53,998 nucleotides of DNA from Escherichia phage vB_EcoM_DE15. The position numbers were made by a program, and so were the translations under genes. The stretch is taken from sequence record NC_079184.1; one strand, 5' to 3'. The notes below the pieces were generated by a model. That model saw nothing but the letters and a program-made list of their open reading frames with translations, was not told the DNA's origin and made no database searches. Shown piece by piece: positions 31,879 to 43,047 of this stretch. The number at the start of each line of letters is the position of its first letter. Positions within the stretch are counted from its first letter, which is position 1.

Positions 31879-32911
31879 CGACGAAGATACCGTGAATGAA
31901 GTAGTTTTGTTGAACGACAAGGCTACTTTAACGACCCGTCGTTTACGTGACTCTGGCGAAATGATTGCAGAATGCACCATCGCTCGTACTGGCATTATGC
32001 TGTACAAGGCGAAAGAACTTGGTGAAATTGCAAAACATCTGGACCCAGAATCTATTTGCCGTGTTCGTACCAAGCCGGAAGTATTATTTGACGAAGCAAC
32101 CATCGAAGGCTGTCGTTCAATCCCGGTTACTATCGGCCATCCGAAAAATGATGTTAACATCAAGAACAACAAAGAACTCCAGAAAGGGTTCATCGAAGGG
32201 CGTCCAGTTGCAGACGGTTCTTTCTTAGCTGCATCAATCGTTTTGAATGACGAGCAAGCTATTCGATTAGTTGATTCTGGTGTTGACCAAATCTCCTTGG
32301 GCCATAATGCTGAACTGGCTGTATCAGAAGATGATGAAGCCGACTTCGATAAAGTTCGCATTATCCCTAACCATGCTGCAATTGTTGTTCGTGGTCGTGC
32401 TCAGACTACTCGCATTGGTGACTCTGGTGAAGAGATTGCCATTGTTGATAAGGCAACCTTTGACGTTGTTGAAGCAGAGCGTGATGCAGCGCTTGACAAG
32501 ATTAGTGTCCTTGAGCAGAAACTTGCTGATGCAGAAACTGCACGACTATCCGATGAAGCCATTCAGGCTGAGGTAGACAAACGTGTAATTGCTCGTACAG
32601 CACTGCTTGTTGATGTGGCACGTCTTGGCGACGAGTTCTCCAACCTCGATTTCTCCGGCAAAACCGATGCAGAAATTAAGTTGGCTGTAGTTAATAAATT
32701 GCATGACAAGGATTTCAGCGATAAGAGCGAAGACTATATCTCCGCCCGTTTCGATGCGGCTCTTGAAGATTGCGATTCCATTACTTTGGGAGATGCCCTG
32801 AATCAGTCTATGCAATTCTCTGCTAAGAAAGATTCAGAAGCTCGTAAACCTAAAGTTTCTATTTCCGAAGAAGCTAACAAACGTCGTTTAGAACGCTTCA
32901 ACTCTTTATAA
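31847..32911 (+). CDS. Putative prohead protease / scaffolding protein (GTG start; ORF track 31670)
   Basis: Coiled-coil acidic C-terminal half; position between portal and capsid. Confidence 0.45.
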   Translation: MKQNQNLVQLNDEDTVNEVVLLNDKATLTTRRLRDSGEMIAECTIARTGIMLYKAKELGEIAKHLDPESICRVRTKPEVLFDEATIEGCRSIPVTIGHPKNDVNIKNNKELQKGFIEGRPVADGSFLAASIVLNDEQAIRLVDSGVDQISLGHNAELAVSEDDEADFDKVRIIPNHAAIVVRGRAQTTRIGDSGEEIAIVDKATFDVVEAERDAALDKISVLEQKLADAETARLSDEAIQAEVDKRVIARTALLVDVARLGDEFSNLDFSGKTDAEIKLAVVNKLHDKDFSDKSEDYISARFDAALEDCDSITLGDALNQSMQFSAKKDSEARKPKVSISEEANKRRLERFNSL

Positions 32912-32920
32912 GGTAAGACA

Positions 32921-33394
32921 ATGCCAAAGCAAGATTGGTCTATTAATACTGGTGAAGCATATGCAGGTGAACAATATGGCCTGGCTACCACCAACTCCCA
33001 GCGCCTGACCTACGTTGCCGAAGAAGAAATGGCAAACTTTGGTCTGGCTGTTGTTCAGGGCACGGCCTCTAATCAGGTTAAACCTGGTATTGAAGCAGAC
33101 GGCACTGTTCTGGGCATTACCATGCGCCAGATTAACATCGAATCAGCCACTCGTCCTGGTGACGGTACTGTTGCTATTAAAGTTGGCTGGCCTCTGGGCG
33201 TTATGCTGTCTGGCCCAATCATGGTCAAACTGAAAACCGCAATCACCGATAAAGACATTGGCGTATCTGACACTGGTCAATTTGGTGGCGTTGGTGCTGG
33301 CTATACTAAAGCAACCAACCTGACTGCACTTCGTTATCCGGCTGCTGCTGGTGATGTTGTTCCGGTAATGATTAACGTAGTCCCAAAGCCGTAA
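32921..33394 (+). CDS. Head structural / decoration-like protein (157 aa), highly expressed
   Basis: Host-like codon usage; slippery CCCAAAG 6 codons before stop. Confidence 0.5.
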   Translation: MPKQDWSINTGEAYAGEQYGLATTNSQRLTYVAEEEMANFGLAVVQGTASNQVKPGIEADGTVLGITMRQINIESATRPGDGTVAIKVGWPLGVMLSGPIMVKLKTAITDKDIGVSDTGQFGGVGAGYTKATNLTALRYPAAAGDVVPVMINVVPKP

Positions 33395-33969
33395 CGCCAC
33401 CTCCAGCTCCTGCGGTGTCTGCTGTAGCAGGGACTGTAACTGCGGACGCATCTGCATCTGATGCCACTGTAACTGTAGACAAACTGTTTACGTTTGAGAA
33501 CTCTACAGCAACAGATTACAACTTCGCCGTTACTCCTGCTGTAGCTGGTGTTTCTGTGGCGGCAAACGGCACTGTGACTGTACTAAGTGCAACGACTACA
33601 GCCACTTCTGCGACAATCAAGGCAACGAATAAAACAGAGCCTGGTGTAACTGCATCTAAAGTGATTACGATTAAGCCTAAACCTCCTGCACCTACGGTGT
33701 CTGCTGTAGCTGGAGTTGTAACGGCTGATGCGTCTTCTACTGATGCCACTGTAACTGTAGACAAACTGTTCAAGTTTGGTAACTCTGCAGCAACAGACTA
33801 CACCTACGCTATTACGCCTCCTGTGATTGGCGTTTCTGTGGCTGCAAACGGTACTGTAACCGTCTTGAATGAGACAACTACCGATACCTCTGCCACGGTT
33901 AAGGCAACAAACAAAACAACCTCCAGCGTGACTGCAACTAAAGAAATTGCTATTACGCCGAAGTCTTAA
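33382..33969 (+). CDS. -1 frameshift extension of the previous gene adding two tandem ~95-aa Ig-like repeats
   Basis: No start codon or RBS; -1 frame opens at 33376; repeats share SAVAG..TADAS..DATVTVDKLF..GVSVAANGTVTVL..KATNKT. Confidence 0.5.
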   Translation, partial: PKAVTPPPAPAVSAVAGTVTADASASDATVTVDKLFTFENSTATDYNFAVTPAVAGVSVAANGTVTVLSATTTATSATIKATNKTEPGVTASKVITIKPKPPAPTVSAVAGVVTADASSTDATVTVDKLFKFGNSAATDYTYAITPPVIGVSVAANGTVTVLNETTTDTSATVKATNKTTSSVTATKEIAITPKS

Positions 33970-33977
33970 GTTGTGAT

Positions 33978-33998
33978 GGCGCAATTAATAGTTGCGCC
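33978..33998 (+). other. 7-bp stem-loop GGCGCAA-TTAATAG-TTGCGCC between Ig-like extension and capsid gene
   Basis: Read from sequence. Confidence 0.4.
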
Positions 33999-34024
33999 TC
34001 ACCAAACAAAACGGATTAATTTAC

Positions 34025-35032
34025 ATGCCTAAGATGATTAAACTGGCGGACGGTTCTGAATTCGAACTGAACGACGCTATCACCCGTATTCAGGATTCTG
34101 GCACTGTTGTCCTGAATGACGACGATGCAGTATTCTTTCAACGCCAGCTTGAGTACATTGAAGCTCAAACTTACGACACTCTGTATCCAGAACTGGAAGC
34201 TCGTGCTGCTTTCGGTGTGGACACTACTGGTGGTGCTGGCGTAAACACTCTGACCTACCGTTCTTACAACCATGTTGGTAAAGCTCAGGTAATTAACGCC
34301 CGTGCAACCGACCTGCCTAAATCCAGCATTTCTGGTAAAGAATACAGTATCCCTGTTAAATCTGTTGGTACTGCATTCGACTACGATATTGATGAAGTGG
34401 CATCCGCTGCTGTTACTGGCCTCCCGCTGGAAACTCGTAAAGCAAATGCTGCTATTCGTGGTTACGAACAGTATGTTAACTCTGCTGCATGGTACGGCGA
34501 TAAAGCTAACGGCTTTGTTGGCTTCTTCGAAAACCCAGACATTACCAAAGCAACTGTTGCTCAGGGTGCTGGCGGTTCTACCAAGTGGGCCGAAAAGACC
34601 CCGACCGAAGTTATTGCTGACCTGACTGCTGCTGTGTCTGCAATGTATGCTTCTACTCTGAAAATCATGCGCCCGGACGAAATCTGGATGCCTGTCGAGC
34701 ATGAGCAGTACATCTTCAACACTGCACGTTCTGAGCAGTCTGACAAGACGATTGGTCAATTCTTCATTGACAACAACCAGTTCATCAACTCCCGCGATAA
34801 AATCAAGGGTCTGAACGCAATCAAAGGCCATGGCGATTCTGGTTCTGATTGCTTCGTCGTTGTTTGCCGCAATGCAATGGGCAACCGTACTTTCCGTCTG
34901 CGTGAGCCTCTGCCGCTGACCTGGCAACCAGTACAGCTTCATGGCCTGGTTTATGAAGTTCCTGGCCGTGGTCGTTTCGCTGGCTTCCAAGCGATGTATC
35001 CGGCAGCAATCTCCATCAACTCCGGCATCTGA
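34025..35032 (+). CDS. Major capsid protein (putative)
   Basis: 335 aa, host-like codon usage, position after scaffold; ATG 34025 preferred over TTG 33992. Confidence 0.65.
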   Translation: MPKMIKLADGSEFELNDAITRIQDSGTVVLNDDDAVFFQRQLEYIEAQTYDTLYPELEARAAFGVDTTGGAGVNTLTYRSYNHVGKAQVINARATDLPKSSISGKEYSIPVKSVGTAFDYDIDEVASAAVTGLPLETRKANAAIRGYEQYVNSAAWYGDKANGFVGFFENPDITKATVAQGAGGSTKWAEKTPTEVIADLTAAVSAMYASTLKIMRPDEIWMPVEHEQYIFNTARSEQSDKTIGQFFIDNNQFINSRDKIKGLNAIKGHGDSGSDCFVVVCRNAMGNRTFRLREPLPLTWQPVQLHGLVYEVPGRGRFAGFQAMYPAAISINSGI

Positions 35033-38236: not shown

Positions 38237-38692
38237 GTGAAACAATATTCTTTCTATAATACCGACCTCATTATCGACGGTGCTCGTGTAGATGGTTTTA
38301 CCTCTGGTAATTCCATCATCACTGCTCGTCGTAACGCACCTCAACACCTGCCTGTTATTGACGCGTATGGTAAGTTGGCTGTAGCTACTACGGCTGACTT
38401 ATCTGGTACTATTACTTTCCCGCTTCTGCAAACCGCAGACTGGAACGAAATCTTGTACAGCCGTGCTCAGTTAACTCAGGCAACTGGTCTGTCTGGCAAC
38501 AAATCTCTGTGGCAACCGCTCCAGATTCAGATTGTTGACAAGATGGGTGATGTGCTGGTCAATGGTGTAAACGGCGCTATCTTGCAGCAACCTGCAATTC
38601 AGCGTGGTGTGTCCTTCACGTCTAACGTGTGGTCTATCTTTGTAGAGCGCCTCCAGATTAAGACTGGTTCTTATCCGGAAATTGGCGTTTAA
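38237..38692 (+). CDS. Tail tube protein (putative)
   Basis: 151 aa, position. Confidence 0.45.
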   Translation: MKQYSFYNTDLIIDGARVDGFTSGNSIITARRNAPQHLPVIDAYGKLAVATTADLSGTITFPLLQTADWNEILYSRAQLTQATGLSGNKSLWQPLQIQIVDKMGDVLVNGVNGAILQQPAIQRGVSFTSNVWSIFVERLQIKTGSYPEIGV

Positions 38693-38703: not shown

Positions 38704-39162
38704 ATGGCTTGTGAATTGCTTCAACGTGAATTCACAAACTCCAAAGGCGAAACAGTGTTAGTCGTTGTTCGACAATTGTCGGCTTCGGCTGCACTGTCTC
38801 TTCACGCGGAGTTGGTAAGCAAGTTAGGCTCACGAGTATTCCCATTCATCGAAGGTAAATATAACTTCGCTGATATTATATACTTGATGCAGCAAGTAGA
38901 GCATACCGTATTCACAGAATTGTTTAAGCGTGTTATCAGCATGCACTCGTCCATAGATGGACAAGAAATCAAACCTGCATTATATGATATGCAGTTCAAT
39001 GGCGAATTGATGTTGTCTTGCCATGTCTTTGCTTTCGTGCTCGAAGCAAACTTCCTTGATTTTTTCAAGCAAGGGCTCGAAATCAACGAACAGAGACGAT
39101 TGGAGGCGGAGGAAGCATCCAAGCTGGCAGAGCAGAAGAATTCGAGTCCGGAGACAGTTTAG
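38704..39162 (+). CDS. Tail assembly chaperone (G-like)
   Basis: Acidic C-terminus; TTTTTTC slippery site at 39060; position before tape measure. Confidence 0.55.
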   Translation: MACELLQREFTNSKGETVLVVVRQLSASAALSLHAELVSKLGSRVFPFIEGKYNFADIIYLMQQVEHTVFTELFKRVISMHSSIDGQEIKPALYDMQFNGELMLSCHVFAFVLEANFLDFFKQGLEINEQRRLEAEEASKLAEQKNSSPETV

Positions 39163-39338
39163 TATCCCTGTTCCCCGACATAAAATATTTTCTGCATCGT
39201 CCTATAATCGAAGATAGTTCTCTCTGCAAGTTACGTGAATTGCAAGATGGAACCTATTCGATTATGGACTTATTGCTATTCCACGACATTCTCGATTTGC
39301 GTAAGAAACTCGAACCAGTAGATGAAGACAATGGCTAA
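39060..39338 (+). CDS. -1 frameshift extension of tail assembly chaperone (GT-like product)
   Basis: -1 frame opens exactly at the slippery heptamer (stop TGA 39057-39059) and runs 92 codons to 39338. Confidence 0.5.
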   Translation, partial: FFQARARNQRTETIGGGGSIQAGRAEEFESGDSLVSLFPDIKYFLHRPIIEDSSLCKLRELQDGTYSIMDLLLFHDILDLRKKLEPVDEDNG

Positions 39339-42300
39339 TCAAAAAGATTTAATGAAGTTGAGCGTTAATGAGTTAATTGCATTAGGCTCTCAAAGCGGTC
39401 TGACTTTCCATGCTGGTATGAAGAAGTCGCACATGGTTCAACAACTTAGTGCGAGCGCTGCTTCGGGATGGCTGGATACAAATGCAGAATTAATGGGTGG
39501 GTCGTTCGAAGATGACAGTTTGATTACTGAATCTTTGGGTGACTCTTCCATGATTTCAGACGCTGCCCACATTGCACAAGTGCTTTCAAGTGCTGGCTAC
39601 ACAGAAGCATTTCATGCAGCAATGAATGGCCCATCACACCATGTAGAAGCTGTTCACGCATACATGGAAAGGCTTGGCGTTAGCACAGATGATGTGTGGA
39701 TGCACATGCCAAAGCCAAATCCGAACCTACCGCAAGGTAGCTTCAACATGCTTAATGCCTATATGCGAGATACTTTGCAAGGGCATCAAGATATTATGCC
39801 GGAAATCCCAGGCCATTATGCTGGGGATATTATGGCTGAATACTCCACCAACCGTGGAAACATTGCTGACTCCTACAACTACATGGCCCACATGTATGTT
39901 GACCGTGAGCAATATAGCAATCATGAACAATACGCAAGAGACATTAGTCGAGTTGCCAAACGTCTGGAACGAGAGTTACCCTCAGCCTTTAAGGAAGTTG
40001 GGTATACATCCGCATCTAATGTAGGAAATAAATCGGCCCCACATATTTCTTACATGGATGCACTCCCTCAGATTGGTTCTCCTTCGATTGTTTCTGGCAT
40101 TGCACATCCTCGTGCACCTCTTAACGCATCTGGACTTCCTCTTGGTTCTTATGGTTCTGGCATAAATCCAGAATACTCCCTCACTGCCTCGCTAACTGGT
40201 GGCACTGGTTGGAGTGAACCAAGCAAGGCTTTATATTCCTCTATTAGCGAAGCTGTTAAATCTGCTGCCAAAGTTTATTCTGGTTCCAAAGGGATGATGA
40301 ATACTCGTCACGAAGTATCTGACCGTGACATGATTATGGACAGTGCAACTCGCTACACAGATTTGGAAGAAGCCAGAAGCGGATACGAAAACCTTCGTTC
40401 TGAACTTGCAGATGAACCAGCTTATTCTGCATCAAGTGTTCGAGCTATTCTCGAAAACACTTACGATAGAATGGATGCCGAACCTGTTCGCATTCCAAAG
40501 ATGAAGGGAGCTTCACAGCGAGTCGATAAAGATTCACTGTCAACATCTACAGATTTTACAGCACAACTTGGAGAGGCCACCAATTGGAACTCTGCAAGAA
40601 TGCGTCGTGAGGAACTTGCGATTGCAAATATGGATAGTGCTGGATTCCGTGATGTATCAGACTATGGTACAGGACGTTCCGAGTCCCCCGTCCGATTCCA
40701 TGACTTAGAACAGGGCAGCCAAGAGTGGCTGGACTTCCGTAAAAATTATGACATAACTGGCTCAACTGTTGGAACTTTCTTAGGAAACAACCCATACACC
40801 CGACCTTGGGCTGGTATGATTGATAAGATTGGCTTATCTCGTAGTAAAGAGCACAGCGATTTCACCAAAAAGATGTTCGCTGATGGTCACAGGACGGAAG
40901 AAGAAGCACGCGCTCGTGTTGGTAAGGAATTTGGATTCGATATCAAACAAATTGGCGCTATAACAAATGACAACTATCCCGCCTTCATGTATTCTCCTGA
41001 TGGTCTTATTGGGGATGATGCCATTTGGGAGCACAAGAATCCGCAAAGGGCTGGTAAGTTTGCTGACCTTCTTAAAGGCGACCATCCAGACTACATGGAC
41101 CAAATTCAATTTGGTATGCACGTTTCTGGCCGTTCTCGTGCTTTGTTCTCACAAACCATCAACGACGAAACACGTTCGCAGTGGATTGAGAAGGACGAAG
41201 GATGGTACGAAAGAAACCGAAATCGCCTTGATTCTGTGCTTGGCCGTCTTGATGCTGGGCGAGAGTTTGTTAGAAACAATGCTGGATTAGAACGAGAAGA
41301 GCTGATTGCTGGTGCAAGAAGTGCAATGACTGGTGATGGAATCTGGAAAGATATTCGTCAAAGGTCTACTCGTGGCTATTCTGCTGCTGCTGGTACTCCA
41401 GAAGACCCGTTTATTGGTTCACGTTCTTCGTACAATCCAGAAGCATCCTACTCTGACTACAAGCCAAACTTTGTAATGCACGAGCAAAACTTTCCGGCAA
41501 CTACTGGAAATGGTGACACCGGAAATGACTCGATGGCATTGTCTGTTAAGAAAGGTATTCTTGCTGCTCAGGAAGAAAACAGGCAGAAAGGTATTGGTGC
41601 AGATGCAGACTTTGATGGCAAAGCCGATTCAATGGGCTGGAACCGTGAAAGATTTGATGCTGCCAATGGCGGTGGATATTCTGGCGGTGGTGGTGGTCGT
41701 GGCGGCAACTTCACAAGTGGTGGCAACTACTATGATGACTACGGTCGCATGGGTGGTTCGTTAGCTGCTGGCATTGCTGGTGGCAGTATTGGTTCAGCAA
41801 CCAACGGAGTTATGCAAGCATTGATGGCAACTCCTGCTGGACGTATGGCTGCTGTAGGCATTGGTGCTATTCAGATTGGCAATGAAGCTGCTGAATACAT
41901 GAATGACTTTATCGGCAACTCGCTTGATGCTGGTGTGATAAATCCTAATGAATATTCTTCCATGTCGCAAGGCTTGGAGATGTTAGGACTCAACTCACAA
42001 CAAGCGGCACGTCTGAATCAAACCACACATAGTGCCTATAACACCATGCTTAACGGCGACCCCAGCGCCGCTGTGAACATCGTTCGCGGCAGTAGGGGAT
42101 TGCTCACCATAGGTGATATTCGTGCGACAGGCGGCGACCCTGTGGCCCTGGCTCGCATCATGCAGGAAAGGGGCAAGGAGCGTGGCTGGAGTCAGGCCCG
42201 TATCGCAGGTGCTGCCGAAATGGCTGGCCTACAGGGTATGGCGCGAGCATACGACCGCACGGAATACAGCCATGAGCAAGCTGGCTCGGTGGTAGAAGCG

Positions 42301-43047
42301 GGTAGAAACTCCGACTTTGCCGAAGGTATGGCCCAATCGGAAATGTTGCAGGGAAGCCGCGCACGGATGCTGCCGAGCTACAACGTGCCACAAAGTGTCC
42401 TATCTAATGGCGCTTCTGTATTTGAGGCTGGCAGTGATGCACTTGACAGTGTACGCACTGGATTCAACAGGACACGAGAGTTTGCTGGAAGTGTTTACGA
42501 CTTTATTGCTCAGGAAGAATCTGGCGGTCGTGAATACAACAAAGATGGTTCTCGTGTAACAAGTCCAACTGGCGCTCGTGGGATAATGCAGATTCTCCCT
42601 TCGACTGCCCGTGACCCAGGATTTGGAATCAGGCCGTCTGATGGAACTCCAGAAGATGATGCACGAGTTGGTCGTGAATACTATGACGCAATGTACAAGC
42701 GTTATGGCGACCACGAGAAAGCAATGGCTGCTTACACCGATGGTCCTGGCACTGTTGACAAAGCTGTTGATAAGAATGGGTTGGATTGGCTTACTGCTGT
42801 TCCTGCACAGGCACAGAATCGCGTCAAAGCATTCCGTGAATGGTCCAAGTCTTCTCAATCTTTGGAAGAAGGTGCTACAGGGTTTACTCGTAATGGAATG
42901 TCATACGGTCAAACCCAAACTGTTGTTAATGTTAAGATTGATGCTAAGGTCAACAACCAGACTGCTTCTGCTACAGTTGCAATTCCTGGTGGTCAGACTG
43001 TGACTCAACAAATGAACATGAACAACGGTGCGCAACAAAGACGTTAA
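39322..43047 (+). CDS. Tape measure protein (1241 aa) with internal YqaJ-like PD-(D/E)xK nuclease domain and C-terminal lytic transglycosylase (SLT) domain
   Basis: QGSQEWLDFRKNYDITGSTVGTFLG and YSPDGLIGDDAIWEHKNP (YqaJ-like); EESGGREY...GARGIMQILPSTA (SLT); Gly-rich hydrophobic stretch. Confidence 0.65.
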   Translation: MKTMANQKDLMKLSVNELIALGSQSGLTFHAGMKKSHMVQQLSASAASGWLDTNAELMGGSFEDDSLITESLGDSSMISDAAHIAQVLSSAGYTEAFHAAMNGPSHHVEAVHAYMERLGVSTDDVWMHMPKPNPNLPQGSFNMLNAYMRDTLQGHQDIMPEIPGHYAGDIMAEYSTNRGNIADSYNYMAHMYVDREQYSNHEQYARDISRVAKRLERELPSAFKEVGYTSASNVGNKSAPHISYMDALPQIGSPSIVSGIAHPRAPLNASGLPLGSYGSGINPEYSLTASLTGGTGWSEPSKALYSSISEAVKSAAKVYSGSKGMMNTRHEVSDRDMIMDSATRYTDLEEARSGYENLRSELADEPAYSASSVRAILENTYDRMDAEPVRIPKMKGASQRVDKDSLSTSTDFTAQLGEATNWNSARMRREELAIANMDSAGFRDVSDYGTGRSESPVRFHDLEQGSQEWLDFRKNYDITGSTVGTFLGNNPYTRPWAGMIDKIGLSRSKEHSDFTKKMFADGHRTEEEARARVGKEFGFDIKQIGAITNDNYPAFMYSPDGLIGDDAIWEHKNPQRAGKFADLLKGDHPDYMDQIQFGMHVSGRSRALFSQTINDETRSQWIEKDEGWYERNRNRLDSVLGRLDAGREFVRNNAGLEREELIAGARSAMTGDGIWKDIRQRSTRGYSAAAGTPEDPFIGSRSSYNPEASYSDYKPNFVMHEQNFPATTGNGDTGNDSMALSVKKGILAAQEENRQKGIGADADFDGKADSMGWNRERFDAANGGGYSGGGGGRGGNFTSGGNYYDDYGRMGGSLAAGIAGGSIGSATNGVMQALMATPAGRMAAVGIGAIQIGNEAAEYMNDFIGNSLDAGVINPNEYSSMSQGLEMLGLNSQQAARLNQTTHSAYNTMLNGDPSAAVNIVRGSRGLLTIGDIRATGGDPVALARIMQERGKERGWSQARIAGAAEMAGLQGMARAYDRTEYSHEQAGSVVEAGRNSDFAEGMAQSEMLQGSRARMLPSYNVPQSVLSNGASVFEAGSDALDSVRTGFNRTREFAGSVYDFIAQEESGGREYNKDGSRVTSPTGARGIMQILPSTARDPGFGIRPSDGTPEDDARVGREYYDAMYKRYGDHEKAMAAYTDGPGTVDKAVDKNGLDWLTAVPAQAQNRVKAFREWSKSSQSLEEGATGFTRNGMSYGQTQTVVNVKIDAKVNNQTASATVAIPGGQTVTQQMNMNNGAQQRR

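Follow-up and report, generated by a model that had tools for sequence, protein, structure and literature searches.

The cement protein gene of Escherichia phage vB_EcoM_DE15 very probably carries an unannotated programmed -1 frameshift site, C_CCA_AAG, at which two Ig-like domains would be appended to the cement protein, the extended subunits co-assembling with the short ones for sub-stoichiometric display on the capsid. The window, i.e., the whole stretch of DNA that was analysed, comprises 53,998 nt (sequence record NC_079184.1). The initial annotation had proposed a frameshift of this kind, known as a mechanism by which phages add Ig-like domains to structural proteins, and the comparative data support this reading, because the heptamer is conserved across genera while the preceding codon and the following sequence change, and because the -1 ORFs lack usable starts, the coding signal switches frame at the heptamer and the appended segments are predicted to form beta-sandwiches. 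The features of the locus are:

32921..33394, + strand: cement (decoration) protein gene in frame 0, 157 aa, with ATG at 32921 and TAA at 33392-33394
33376..33391, + strand: 16-nt stretch open in both frame 0 and frame -1, bounded by the -1-frame TAA at 33373-33375 and the 0-frame TAA at 33392-33394
33382..33388, + strand: candidate slippery heptamer C_CCA_AAG (X_XXY_YYZ type), in phase with frame 0 as gtC CCA AAG
33388..33414, + strand: Pro-rich linker AVTPPPAPA in the -1 frame, by translation, preceding the first start-type codon of that frame
33399..33680, + strand: predicted Ig-like repeat 1, 94 aa including the PPAP lead-in, a 282-nt tandem repeat of family D1
33410..33438, + strand: hairpin CCTGC...GCAGG, doubtful as a frameshift stimulator (z-score -0.42, no covariation)
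33681..33962, + strand: predicted Ig-like repeat 2, 94 aa, a 282-nt tandem repeat
33967..33969, + strand: TAA stop of the -1 frame, giving a trans-frame product of 349 aa
34025-35032: major capsid protein gene, with the cement gene directly upstream

We confirmed that the 157-aa gene ends at 33394, that the -1 frame opens at 33376 and that the canonical heptamer is in phase with the gene, position 33382 being the third position of a frame-0 codon. The heptamer lies inside the frame overlap, 4 nt before the stop of the frame-0 gene, and since the two frames are both open only over these 16 nt, a frameshift joining them must occur there. From 33376 the -1 frame runs open for 197 codons to the TAA at 33967-33969, and it was kept open in only 2 of 20,000 shuffles of the segment. 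CCCAAAG occurs a single time on the + strand of the 54-kb window, and among the ORFs of 100 aa or more in the window, the cement gene alone has both an X_XXY_YYZ motif in phase within a frame overlap and a -1 extension of 80 codons or more. A promoter and terminator scan of 32700-34200 returned nothing relevant.

The gene at 32921-33394 encodes the capsid cement protein of a Carltongylesvirus-like E. coli myophage, and in the mechanism that we propose most ribosomes would stop at the TAA at 33392 to give the 157-aa protein, ending in ...VVPKP. A minority would slip one base back on C_CCA_AAG, where the P-site tRNA-Pro would leave CCA and re-pair with CCC and the A-site tRNA-Lys would leave AAG and re-pair with AAA, and would continue in the -1 frame to 33969. 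The resulting product, with an expected mass of about 35 kDa against 16.5 kDa for the short protein, would consist of the cement domain, the Pro-rich linker and two Ig-like beta-sandwich domains, with the predicted junction ...VVPK|AVTPPPAPAV..., which had been given correctly by the initial annotation as judged by translation. The predicted tryptic peptides of the frameshift product are YPAAAGDVVPVMINVVPK and AVTPPPAPAVSAVAGTVTADASASDATVTVDK, and that of the unshifted protein is YPAAAGDVVPVMINVVPKP, which stays uncut because trypsin does not cleave at K-P. We found no report of virion proteomics or mass spectrometry for Chaseviridae in the searchable literature, and no description of this frameshift site there under Chaseviridae, Carltongylesvirus or phiEcoM-GJ1.

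The 157-aa protein matched the Pfam family PF22758 (Phage_cement) with 63.3 bits (cut-off 27) over residues 4-152 and also matched phrog_563. PDB sequence searches with the cement protein alone or the -1 product alone gave no meaningful match; only the profile of the cement family succeeded, matching the Pam3 ‘Cement’ protein (8hdt_G) at 9.5e-19. Similarly, Foldseek with the AF2 model of the cement protein (pLDDT 90.5) returned 8hdt_G as the best match (TM 0.73), together with the decoration proteins of T1, FCWL1, XM1, TW1 and E217. By profile and model, the carrier is thus a predicted trimeric beta-tulip cement/decoration protein, with trimerisation assigned by homology, and the ‘head protein’ of the initial annotation holds for a capsid protein but not for the major head protein. 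In Pam3 (140 trimers) and E217, trimers of the cement protein occupy the capsid's threefold and quasi-threefold axes (PMC9942802, PMC10329688). When the cement domain was used as a query against 1.84 billion representative proteins, all 49 clusters of genuine cement homologues were 124-187 aa long, and therefore no in-frame cement-Ig fusion is known among these representatives. A search of a 5.8-billion-protein database with the 349-aa fusion was swamped by low-complexity T/A/V words and yielded four matches, all to the Ig part, which served as alignment for the structure prediction and for context.

The slip site is conserved in relatives that have a -1 ORF. C_CCA_AAG is found in frame in 13/13 tabulated Cleopatravirinae-type lineages (Chaseviridae) with such an ORF (Carltongylesvirus, Suwonvirus, Faunusvirus, Sabourvirus, four Loessnervirus types and the metagenomic L028, L030 and L033 among them), and L032 additionally has C_CCA_AAA. 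The codon before the heptamer varies between GTC, GGC, ATC, CTC, GCC and TCC (V/G/I/L/A/S) and ends in C in every lineage; in the same genes C-ending codons make up 26% of all codons, CCA 45% of Pro codons and AAG 33% of Lys codons. Across ten Carltongylesvirus-type sequences, the 17 nt through the end of the heptamer are invariant, versus 28 of 50 variable third positions upstream. In these ten sequences the variable sites upstream of the heptamer are distributed 28/8/4 on frame-0 codon positions 3/1/2, and directly downstream they are distributed 28/10/7 on -1-frame positions 3/1/2, i.e., the frame that shows synonymous variation changes at the heptamer, from 0 to -1. In all tabulated lineages the 0-frame stop follows 0 or 1 codon past the heptamer, a -1 ORF of 99-127 codons continues after this stop, and a Pro-rich linker follows the slip site. 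The sole exception to the canonical motif is Proteus phage Myduc, with a 123-codon -1 ORF behind the non-canonical G_GCA_AAG, while a distant cement homologue (L038, 39% identity) represents an independent case, with G_GGA_AAA followed by a 124-codon -1 ORF. The Nefertitivirinae relatives retrieved from GenBank have neither the heptamer nor the -1 ORF, and one 58%-identical relative (L034) has no extension, which is therefore dispensable. Overall, the comparison indicates that divergent relatives keep the nucleotides of the slip site to a degree that conservation of the protein does not explain.

An alternative explanation is transcriptional slippage, in which the frame would change in the RNA and not by the ribosome. 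As a rule, a polymerase slips productively on homopolymers of at least about 6-9 residues, and the runs at this site are three C and three A only; in addition, a conserved, phased X_XXY_YYZ heptamer is the signature of tandem tRNA slippage. Transcriptional slippage would yield an identical fusion protein and is used by phages elsewhere (PMC5009743), but with these runs and this motif we consider it extremely unlikely. In E. coli, C_CCA_AAG is reported as one of the motifs most prone to shifting (PMC5009743, PMC4066793), in line with the ribosomal reading.

We then considered where translation of the -1 frame could begin independently. There is no ATG anywhere in the -1 frame of the window, whose first start-type codon is a GTG at 33415 (codon 14), and in none of the lineages compared does the -1 ORF have an ATG before codon 75, its first GTG or TTG falling at codon 13 to 91. 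The initial annotation had described this frame as free of any start codon or RBS, which is accurate for ATG and for a Shine-Dalgarno sequence (none precedes GTG 33415; upstream sequence cgccacctccagctcctgcg) but overlooks the GTG, which is itself not conserved and reads GTA in ST32, GJ1, Mangalitsa and flopper. The segment might accordingly be a separate gene, starting at this GTG or at a later GTG or TTG and encoding a free 184-aa Ig-like protein, for which the predicted N-terminal end would be (M)SAVAGTVTADAS. An ORF of this length is listed from GTG 33415, CDSs from the equivalent codon are annotated in the JL1 and BSBP01 records, and shorter CDSs from later starts appear in seven others (ST32, Y2, Faunus, PYps16N, Myduc, 4HA13 and Mangalitsa). 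However, besides the missing Shine-Dalgarno sequence and the GTA codons, five inspected relatives leave the segment unannotated because it has no credible start, and in other lineages the first start-type codon lies at codon 31-91 of a domain of ~100 codons, so that a truncated fold would result. Moreover, the -1-frame coding pattern and the conserved Pro-rich linker already lie upstream of the GTG, and a free Ig domain would have no capsid anchor. We regard a separate gene as unlikely, to a high degree. A frameshift annotation was absent from all 19 related database records inspected.

Termination-reinitiation, by which the cement protein would be finished at the TAA at 33392 and translation restarted nearby in the -1 frame without a Shine-Dalgarno sequence, would likewise give a separate Ig protein. 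Only 20 nt separate the stop from GTG 33415 in the window, and phage operons often couple translation in this way. The relatives, however, have no conserved start-type codon close to the stop, and reinitiation leaves unexplained the conservation of an in-phase CCCAAAG, the C-ending codon before it and the linker between the heptamer and the first start codon, which makes it less probable still than a separate gene.

The initial annotation had described two tandem repeats of ~95 aa with Ig-like character in the -1 frame, and the structure prediction that it had suggested as a check agrees with this. The two repeats of 94 aa each share 77% nucleotide identity and 71 of 94 residues (76%), their differences being distributed 39/15/12 on -1-frame codon positions 3/1/2, and the PPAP motif of the linker reappears at the start of repeat 2; most relatives have one repeat only. 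The AF2 model of the extension (pLDDT 83.5) contains two beta-sandwich domains with seven to nine beta-strands per repeat, and repeat 1 is all beta at a pLDDT of about 90-96. The Foldseek matches of this model include SraP cadherin-like modules, cadherin EC repeats, RTX adhesin repeats and Ig tandems (E 6e-6 to 2e-4). The whole -1 product matched phrog_13745 (‘Ig domain containing protein’) at 8e-12, with the best-scoring part over repeat 2. The repeats of the window had no match in Pfam, hence belong to no recognised Ig-type family there, and the modules of relatives matched Ig_3, ig, PKD or He_PIG, all below threshold; the repeat family of the window occurs together with Big_2 in the proteins P0003 and P0004. 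The label ‘Ig-like’ is thus based on the predicted fold and the PHROG family name, and we describe the domains as predicted Ig/cadherin-like beta-sandwiches.

At least four unrelated sequence types of the Ig module are exchanged behind the fixed slip site between near-identical phages. Between Aioli and SNUABM27, identity is 93-100% over the flanking genes and about 40% over the Ig segment. Y2 and Farigoule likewise combine near-identical flanks with a divergent Ig segment, and all four keep the slip site and the open frame. These exchanges bear on a further explanation, namely that the -1 ORF is an untranslated remnant, or that an error of sequencing or assembly has put a false frame break into a real in-frame fusion. 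Single-base errors do happen in homopolymer-like runs, yet nothing specific points to one here. Against both versions, dozens of genomes and metagenomic contigs that were sequenced independently share this frame arrangement, the ORF varies mainly at third codon positions, the exchanged modules all retain an open frame and the 1.84 billion representative proteins include no in-frame fusion. A remnant or an error is therefore scarcely credible. Independent initiation, reinitiation, sequencing error and transcriptional slippage were each rejected on the evidence given above.

The initial annotation had also pointed to a possible stem-loop (CCTGC...GCAGG) about 20 nt downstream of the heptamer. 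This hairpin exists at 33410..33438, but a role as stimulator finds no support: it is not more stable than shuffled sequence (MFE z-score -0.42), and alifold on 13 type-a sequences gave a covariation term of -0.06 kcal/mol and no gain for the consensus fold. Its stem begins 21 nt past the heptamer, and the spacers of functional stimulators are usually 5-9 nt; when the 70 nt that follow the heptamer were folded for 16 lineages, no conserved structure at that spacing and no unusually stable one appeared, and no conserved pseudoknot or hairpin stimulator was found in the lineages folded. An upstream SD-like element was not seen by eye. A stimulator is frequent at bacterial -1 frameshift sites and not obligatory; several known cases of Ig extension by frameshifting have a defined downstream stimulator, whereas none was found here. 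The sole conserved feature of the context is the 0-frame stop, which comes 0-1 codon after the heptamer. Heptamers that were assayed in reporters lacking a stimulator exceeded the background, about 0.055%, by a factor of only 2-10 (PMC4066793), and the efficiency at this site could thus be well below 1%.

The cement trimers of the capsid would be assembled from fused and normal subunits together, and each virion would then show a few outward-facing Ig-like domains, which would probably bind carbohydrates weakly on cell or mucus surfaces. Ig-like C-terminal extensions produced by frameshifting have been described for the T3 capsid protein 10A/10B, for head and tail proteins of Lactobacillus phage A2 and for the Listeria phages A118/A500 (-1) and PSA (+1) (Fraser et al. 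2006, from the summary in PMC5009743). Similar to these cases, a virion protein gene carries a slip site at its 3' end, followed by a start-less, out-of-frame Ig-like ORF, one gene has two products of which the longer is the minority (here by prediction), and the Ig modules are apparently mobile by recombination. The carrier differs, being a major capsid or major tail protein in the examples of PMC5009743 and a cement/decoration protein here. The mechanism itself is textbook and known in phages, so that the locus does not come as a conceptual surprise; no account of this locus turned up in the searchable literature.

Compared to the solved cement and decoration proteins of the same Pfam family (Pam3 gp6, 8HDT; E217 gp24, 8FRS; T1; FCWL1), the protein matches by profile and fold, and the solved beta-tulip proteins share with it a size of about 150-210 aa and a gene adjoining that of the major capsid protein. 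No frameshift extension has been described for the solved homologues (PMC9942802, PMC10329688), in contrast to the one predicted here. The N-terminal base of the phi29 head fibre gp8.5 also shares the fold of the cement model (6qyy, Foldseek E 1.7e-4), and its C-terminal part projects outward; this projection is a fibre and no Ig domain, and with its in-frame coding it is present on every subunit. T4 Hoc and further head decoration proteins with Ig repeats display tandem Ig-like domains on the capsid, for which weak binding to glycans or mucus has been proposed, and the SU10-like P0004, encoded directly after a major capsid protein gene, contains the same repeat family as the window. Unlike the product considered here, proteins of the T4 Hoc and P0004 type are stand-alone, in-frame proteins with a capsid-binding part of their own and no recoding. 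The tail assembly chaperone G/GT resembles the cement gene in that a -1 slip late in a short gene of the structural module gives a minority long form, with the difference that this long form is an assembly factor and not a decoration of the virion surface. Separately, a candidate tail assembly chaperone slip site, T_TTT_TTC, was seen at 39060 of the same window.

More tentatively, the slip site and the Pro-rich linker might act as a frameshift-gated “display socket”, with modules swapped in by recombination and display always sub-stoichiometric. The lack of any in-frame cement-Ig fusion among the 1.84 billion representatives points to selection against full occupancy. Behind the conserved site, recombination would insert Ig-like modules from at least four unrelated sequence types, frameshifting might be set by the adjacent stop codon or the Pro-Lys-Pro context and not by a classical RNA stimulator, and the swappable modules could tune the adherence of gut and plant-pathogen phages to differing glycan environments. 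Although this picture is possible, we consider it doubtful.

If the frameshift reading is true, the annotation would be corrected for a whole subfamily, as at least 70 Cleopatravirinae genomes, from phages of E. coli, Shigella, Yersinia, Erwinia, Pectobacterium and Pantoea, are now annotated at this place with a truncated “hypothetical/Ig protein” or leave 300 bp empty. A cement/decoration protein would join the major capsid and major tail proteins named as carriers in PMC5009743. Several of these phages are therapy or biocontrol candidates, and a low-copy surface module would affect the surface chemistry and immunogenicity of the virion and possibly its adherence to mucus or cell surfaces. 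The site would also offer a ready-made, low-valency display site for engineering, and the clean cassette swaps behind a fixed slip site would represent a natural experiment on the co-evolution of recoding signal and domain.

The 157-aa cement gene of Escherichia phage vB_EcoM_DE15 lies in the local order terminase, portal, DUF2213 head-maturation protease or scaffold, 157-aa gene, -1 ORF, major capsid protein and tail sheath. A programmed -1 frameshift site at the end of this gene is strongly supported, and the best explanation is tandem -1 slippage on the heptamer C_CCA_AAG.

Features around the putative slip site and its downstream genes
32921 (ATG) to 33392-33394 (TAA), plus strand: 157-aa cement gene (frame 0)
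33373-33375 (TAA), then open up to TAA 33967-33969, plus strand: -1 frame, 197 codons
33382-33388, plus strand: C_CCA_AAG, within the 16-nt overlap and in the correct phase (gtC CCA AAG ccg TAA)
33399-33680 and 33681-33962, plus strand: tandem 282-nt repeats 1 and 2, inside the extension
33410-33438: proposed hairpin, starting 21 nt past the heptamer
34025-35032: major capsid protein gene

We confirmed from the sequence that the gene ends at 33394, that the -1 frame is open from 33376 and that the heptamer lies in the gene frame, as described in the initial annotation; both frames are open over these 16 nt only. A tandem slip would give ...INVVPK followed by AVTPPPAPAVSAVAG..., with a predicted product of 349 aa. 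On the plus strand of the window, CCCAAAG occurs once, at the slip site, and among window ORFs of at least 100 aa the cement gene alone has both a heptamer in phase within the overlap and a long extension in the -1 frame. After shuffling of the segment, the frame was still open in only 2 of 20,000 cases. The two repeats share 77% nucleotide and 71/94 amino acid identity, their differences falling 39/15/12 on -1-frame codon positions 3/1/2. The earlier statement that the -1 frame has no start codon or ribosome-binding site held in part: the window's -1 frame contains no ATG anywhere, but a GTG exists at 33415, preceded by no Shine-Dalgarno sequence, and the JL1 and BSBP01 GenBank records start a CDS at the equivalent codon.

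The site was then compared across 19 annotated relatives and 24 IMG/VR loci. The heptamer was in phase in every Cleopatravirinae-type lineage having the downstream ORF except Proteus phage Myduc, that is, as C_CCA_AAG in Carltongylesvirus, the TH37/PYps type, Suwonvirus PP101, Faunusvirus, Sabourvirus 4HA13, Loessnervirus Y2, Farigoule, Aioli, SNUABM27 and the metagenomic loci L028, L030 and L033, and as the variant C_CCA_AAA in metagenomic locus L032. Because the preceding codon varies (V, G, I, L, A or S) but has C as its third base in every case, while only 26% of codons in the cement genes compared end in C and CCA and AAG make up 45% of Pro and 33% of Lys codons, selection goes beyond a Pro-Lys motif and acts on the nucleotides themselves. 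In a comparison of ten distinct Carltongylesvirus-type sequences, the variable sites of the 150 nt upstream fell 28/8/4 on frame-0 codon positions 3/1/2 and those of the 120 nt downstream fell 28/10/7 on -1-frame codon positions 3/1/2, and the 17 nt ending with the heptamer did not vary. The -1 ORF after the heptamer always spans 99-127 codons, or 197 in the four two-repeat phages, and begins in all lineages with a Pro-rich linker (VTPPPAP, VAAPVLP, VVAPTVPP, SKPVPPDPPP). No -1 ORF compared has an ATG before codon 75 and the first GTG or TTG falls at codon 13 to 91, so that independent initiation would lose part or most of the domain; where the window has the GTG at 33415, ST32, GJ1, Mangalitsa and flopper have GTA. 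Four rival readings (a separate start for the downstream frame, reinitiation after termination, an ORF that is an untranslated remnant or reflects a sequencing error, and slippage during transcription) are, even taken together, rather unlikely, as each leaves unexplained why the heptamer is conserved in phase at the nucleotide level and start codons are missing.

In Myduc (L012 1764-2106), a 123-codon -1 ORF, which has a Pro-rich linker and weakly matches Ig_3/ig, follows a non-canonical caG_GCA_AAG with TAA immediately after; this could be single-tRNA A_AAG slippage beside the stop codon, or a site of lower efficiency. Both heptamer and ORF are absent from the Nefertitivirinae relatives from GenBank (Shewanella, Aeromonas and Vibrio phages), where the capsid gene is immediately downstream of the cement gene. 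A distant cement homologue (IMGVR_UViG_3300036796_000019, 1962-2297; 39% identity, 161 aa) has another canonical heptamer, G_GGA_AAA, five codons before its stop and then a 124-codon -1 ORF with weak PKD, He_PIG and Big-type matches, and looks like a separate instance of the arrangement.

The carrier had been called a head protein, which proved right in the sense of a cement or decoration protein. The 157-aa protein matches Pfam Phage_cement (E217 gp24/Pam3 gp6; 63 bits, cut-off 27) and phrog_563, a profile of 47 family members finds the Pam3 "Cement" chain 8hdt_G (9.5e-19), and its AlphaFold model (pLDDT 90.5) resembles 8hdt_G (TM 0.73); a major head protein was rejected on these profile and fold matches. 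The model further matches decoration proteins of T1, FCWL1, XM1, TW1 and E217 and the phi29 head fibre base. The cement proteins of Pam3 and E217 form trimers at the capsid threefold and quasi-threefold axes, and Pam3, whose genome equals this phage's in size, carries 140 of them (PMC9942802, PMC10329688). The last six residues of our model (VVPKP and surroundings) lie beyond the final beta-strand at lower confidence, which fits a free C-terminal tail; its outward orientation is assumed. The 49 genuine cement homologue clusters in a set of 1.84 billion representative proteins all span 124-187 aa, and no in-frame cement-Ig fusion was found there. The extension is dispensable because one relative lacks it (IMGVR_UViG_3300014912_000001; cement gene 58% identical, no heptamer, no -1 ORF), its cement gene having the Ala-rich end PAAKAAAAGA. 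The cement protein of Aeromonas phage pAh6.2TG ends in an in-frame AAPAAPLSAEK tail, and short in-frame tails are thus present in cement genes without the frameshift cassette.

The Ig-like character proposed for the two repeats is supported by the predicted fold and by a PHROG match. The extension has no Pfam match, but matches phrog_13745 "Ig domain containing protein" (8e-12), and structure prediction from a shallow alignment gave two all-beta domains (mean pLDDT 83.5, >90 over repeat 1), with Foldseek matches to tandem beta-sandwich adhesion modules (E 6e-6 to 2e-4) such as SraP cadherin-like modules, cadherin EC repeats, RTX adhesin repeats and Ig tandems. Some metagenomic proteins carry four tandem copies of this repeat family plus a Big_2 domain. 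On a 78-kb phage contig, the gene of a 340-aa protein with Big_2 and two copies (L044 6001-7023, ENA ERZ28597378 scaffold_148) immediately follows an SU10-type major capsid gene. Judging by this gene context the protein is probably an in-frame head decoration protein, and the family thus also adjoins a major capsid gene in another phage.

Across the relatives, the -1 ORFs comprise at least four sequence types without evident mutual similarity, some weakly matching Ig_3, ig, PKD or He_PIG. Aioli and SNUABM27 (L009/L010) are 93-100% identical in their protease, cement and capsid genes and only ~40% in the Ig segment, and Y2 and Farigoule (L011/L018), assigned to one species, show the same pattern; in both pairs the unrelated Ig-like modules lie between slip site and capsid gene (about 1770-2100), and on its left the exchanged segment is bounded by the slip site plus linker. 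The window segment shares 95-97% identity with Escherichia phages vB_EcoM_JL1, SA91KD and flopper and 85-91% with phiEcoM-GJ1, ST32 and other Carltongylesvirus (Chaseviridae, Cleopatravirinae). Only the window, JL1, SA91KD and flopper have two repeats, other Carltongylesvirus relatives having one; inspected by eye, repeat 1 looks in places like the GJ1 allele and repeat 2 like that of ST32, and unequal crossover between two alleles would fit better than simple in-place duplication. GenBank PP952070.1, "Staphylococcus phage Pel53" (stated host Staphylococcus hyicus), is 87% identical to the window region in DNA and 91% in the cement protein, and its host assignment looks doubtful.

In E. coli, C_CCA_AAG is described as highly shift-prone (PMC5009743) and had the top efficiency among 64 heptamers tested, reaching 54% with the IS3 pseudoknot, while heptamers without stimulators gave only 2-10 times the ~0.055% background in that reporter study (PMC4066793). 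The stem-loop suggested about 20 nt downstream does start 21 nt past the heptamer, but its stability is not above that of shuffled sequence (z = -0.42) and covariation adds nothing to its consensus fold (-0.06 kcal/mol). Neither a Shine-Dalgarno-like sequence upstream nor, across genera, a conserved RNA structure at the usual spacing downstream was found, and the sole conserved context feature is the frame-0 stop, always 0 or 1 codon past the heptamer. Since no stimulator was found and unstimulated heptamers exceed background so little, either frameshifting is inefficient or the context contributes in some unrecognised way. If the head carries ~420 cement subunits as in Pam3, we infer that 1-10% frameshifting would yield roughly 4-40 Ig-bearing subunits per head.

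Two further elements were observed in the window. A perfect 7-bp inverted repeat (33978-33999, GGCGCAA-ttaatag-TTGCGCC) follows the -1 ORF, ahead of the capsid start at 34025, and may influence the mRNA of the capsid gene; in the SA91KD record, terminator and promoter features are annotated inside the matching segment. A second candidate -1 frameshift is the in-phase T_TTT_TTC at 39060-39066 in a 152-aa ORF (38704-39162), the -1 frame being open over 39060-39338. This ORF sits between a tail-tube-sized ORF (38237-38692) and a 1241-aa tape-measure-sized ORF (39322-43047), a layout that is classic for the tail assembly chaperone G/GT (38704-39338).

Frameshifting is an established route by which phage structural proteins acquire Ig-like domains (Fraser et al. 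2006, as reviewed in PMC5009743). Known cases are T3 10B, phage A2 and the Listeria phages A118, A500 and PSA, and recombination-driven movement of such domains has been proposed earlier (PMC5009743). The cement locus would work in like manner, as initially suggested, but differs from these cases in having a cement protein as carrier, in its conservation throughout a whole subfamily and in showing no evident stimulator. The site is not annotated in the GenBank/RefSeq records inspected (19 relatives), which show either a truncated ORF or an empty stretch of ~300 bp, and no published description was found in the openly searchable literature, subscription literature not being covered. The finding is of value mainly to annotation and to phage engineering and is of moderate conceptual interest.
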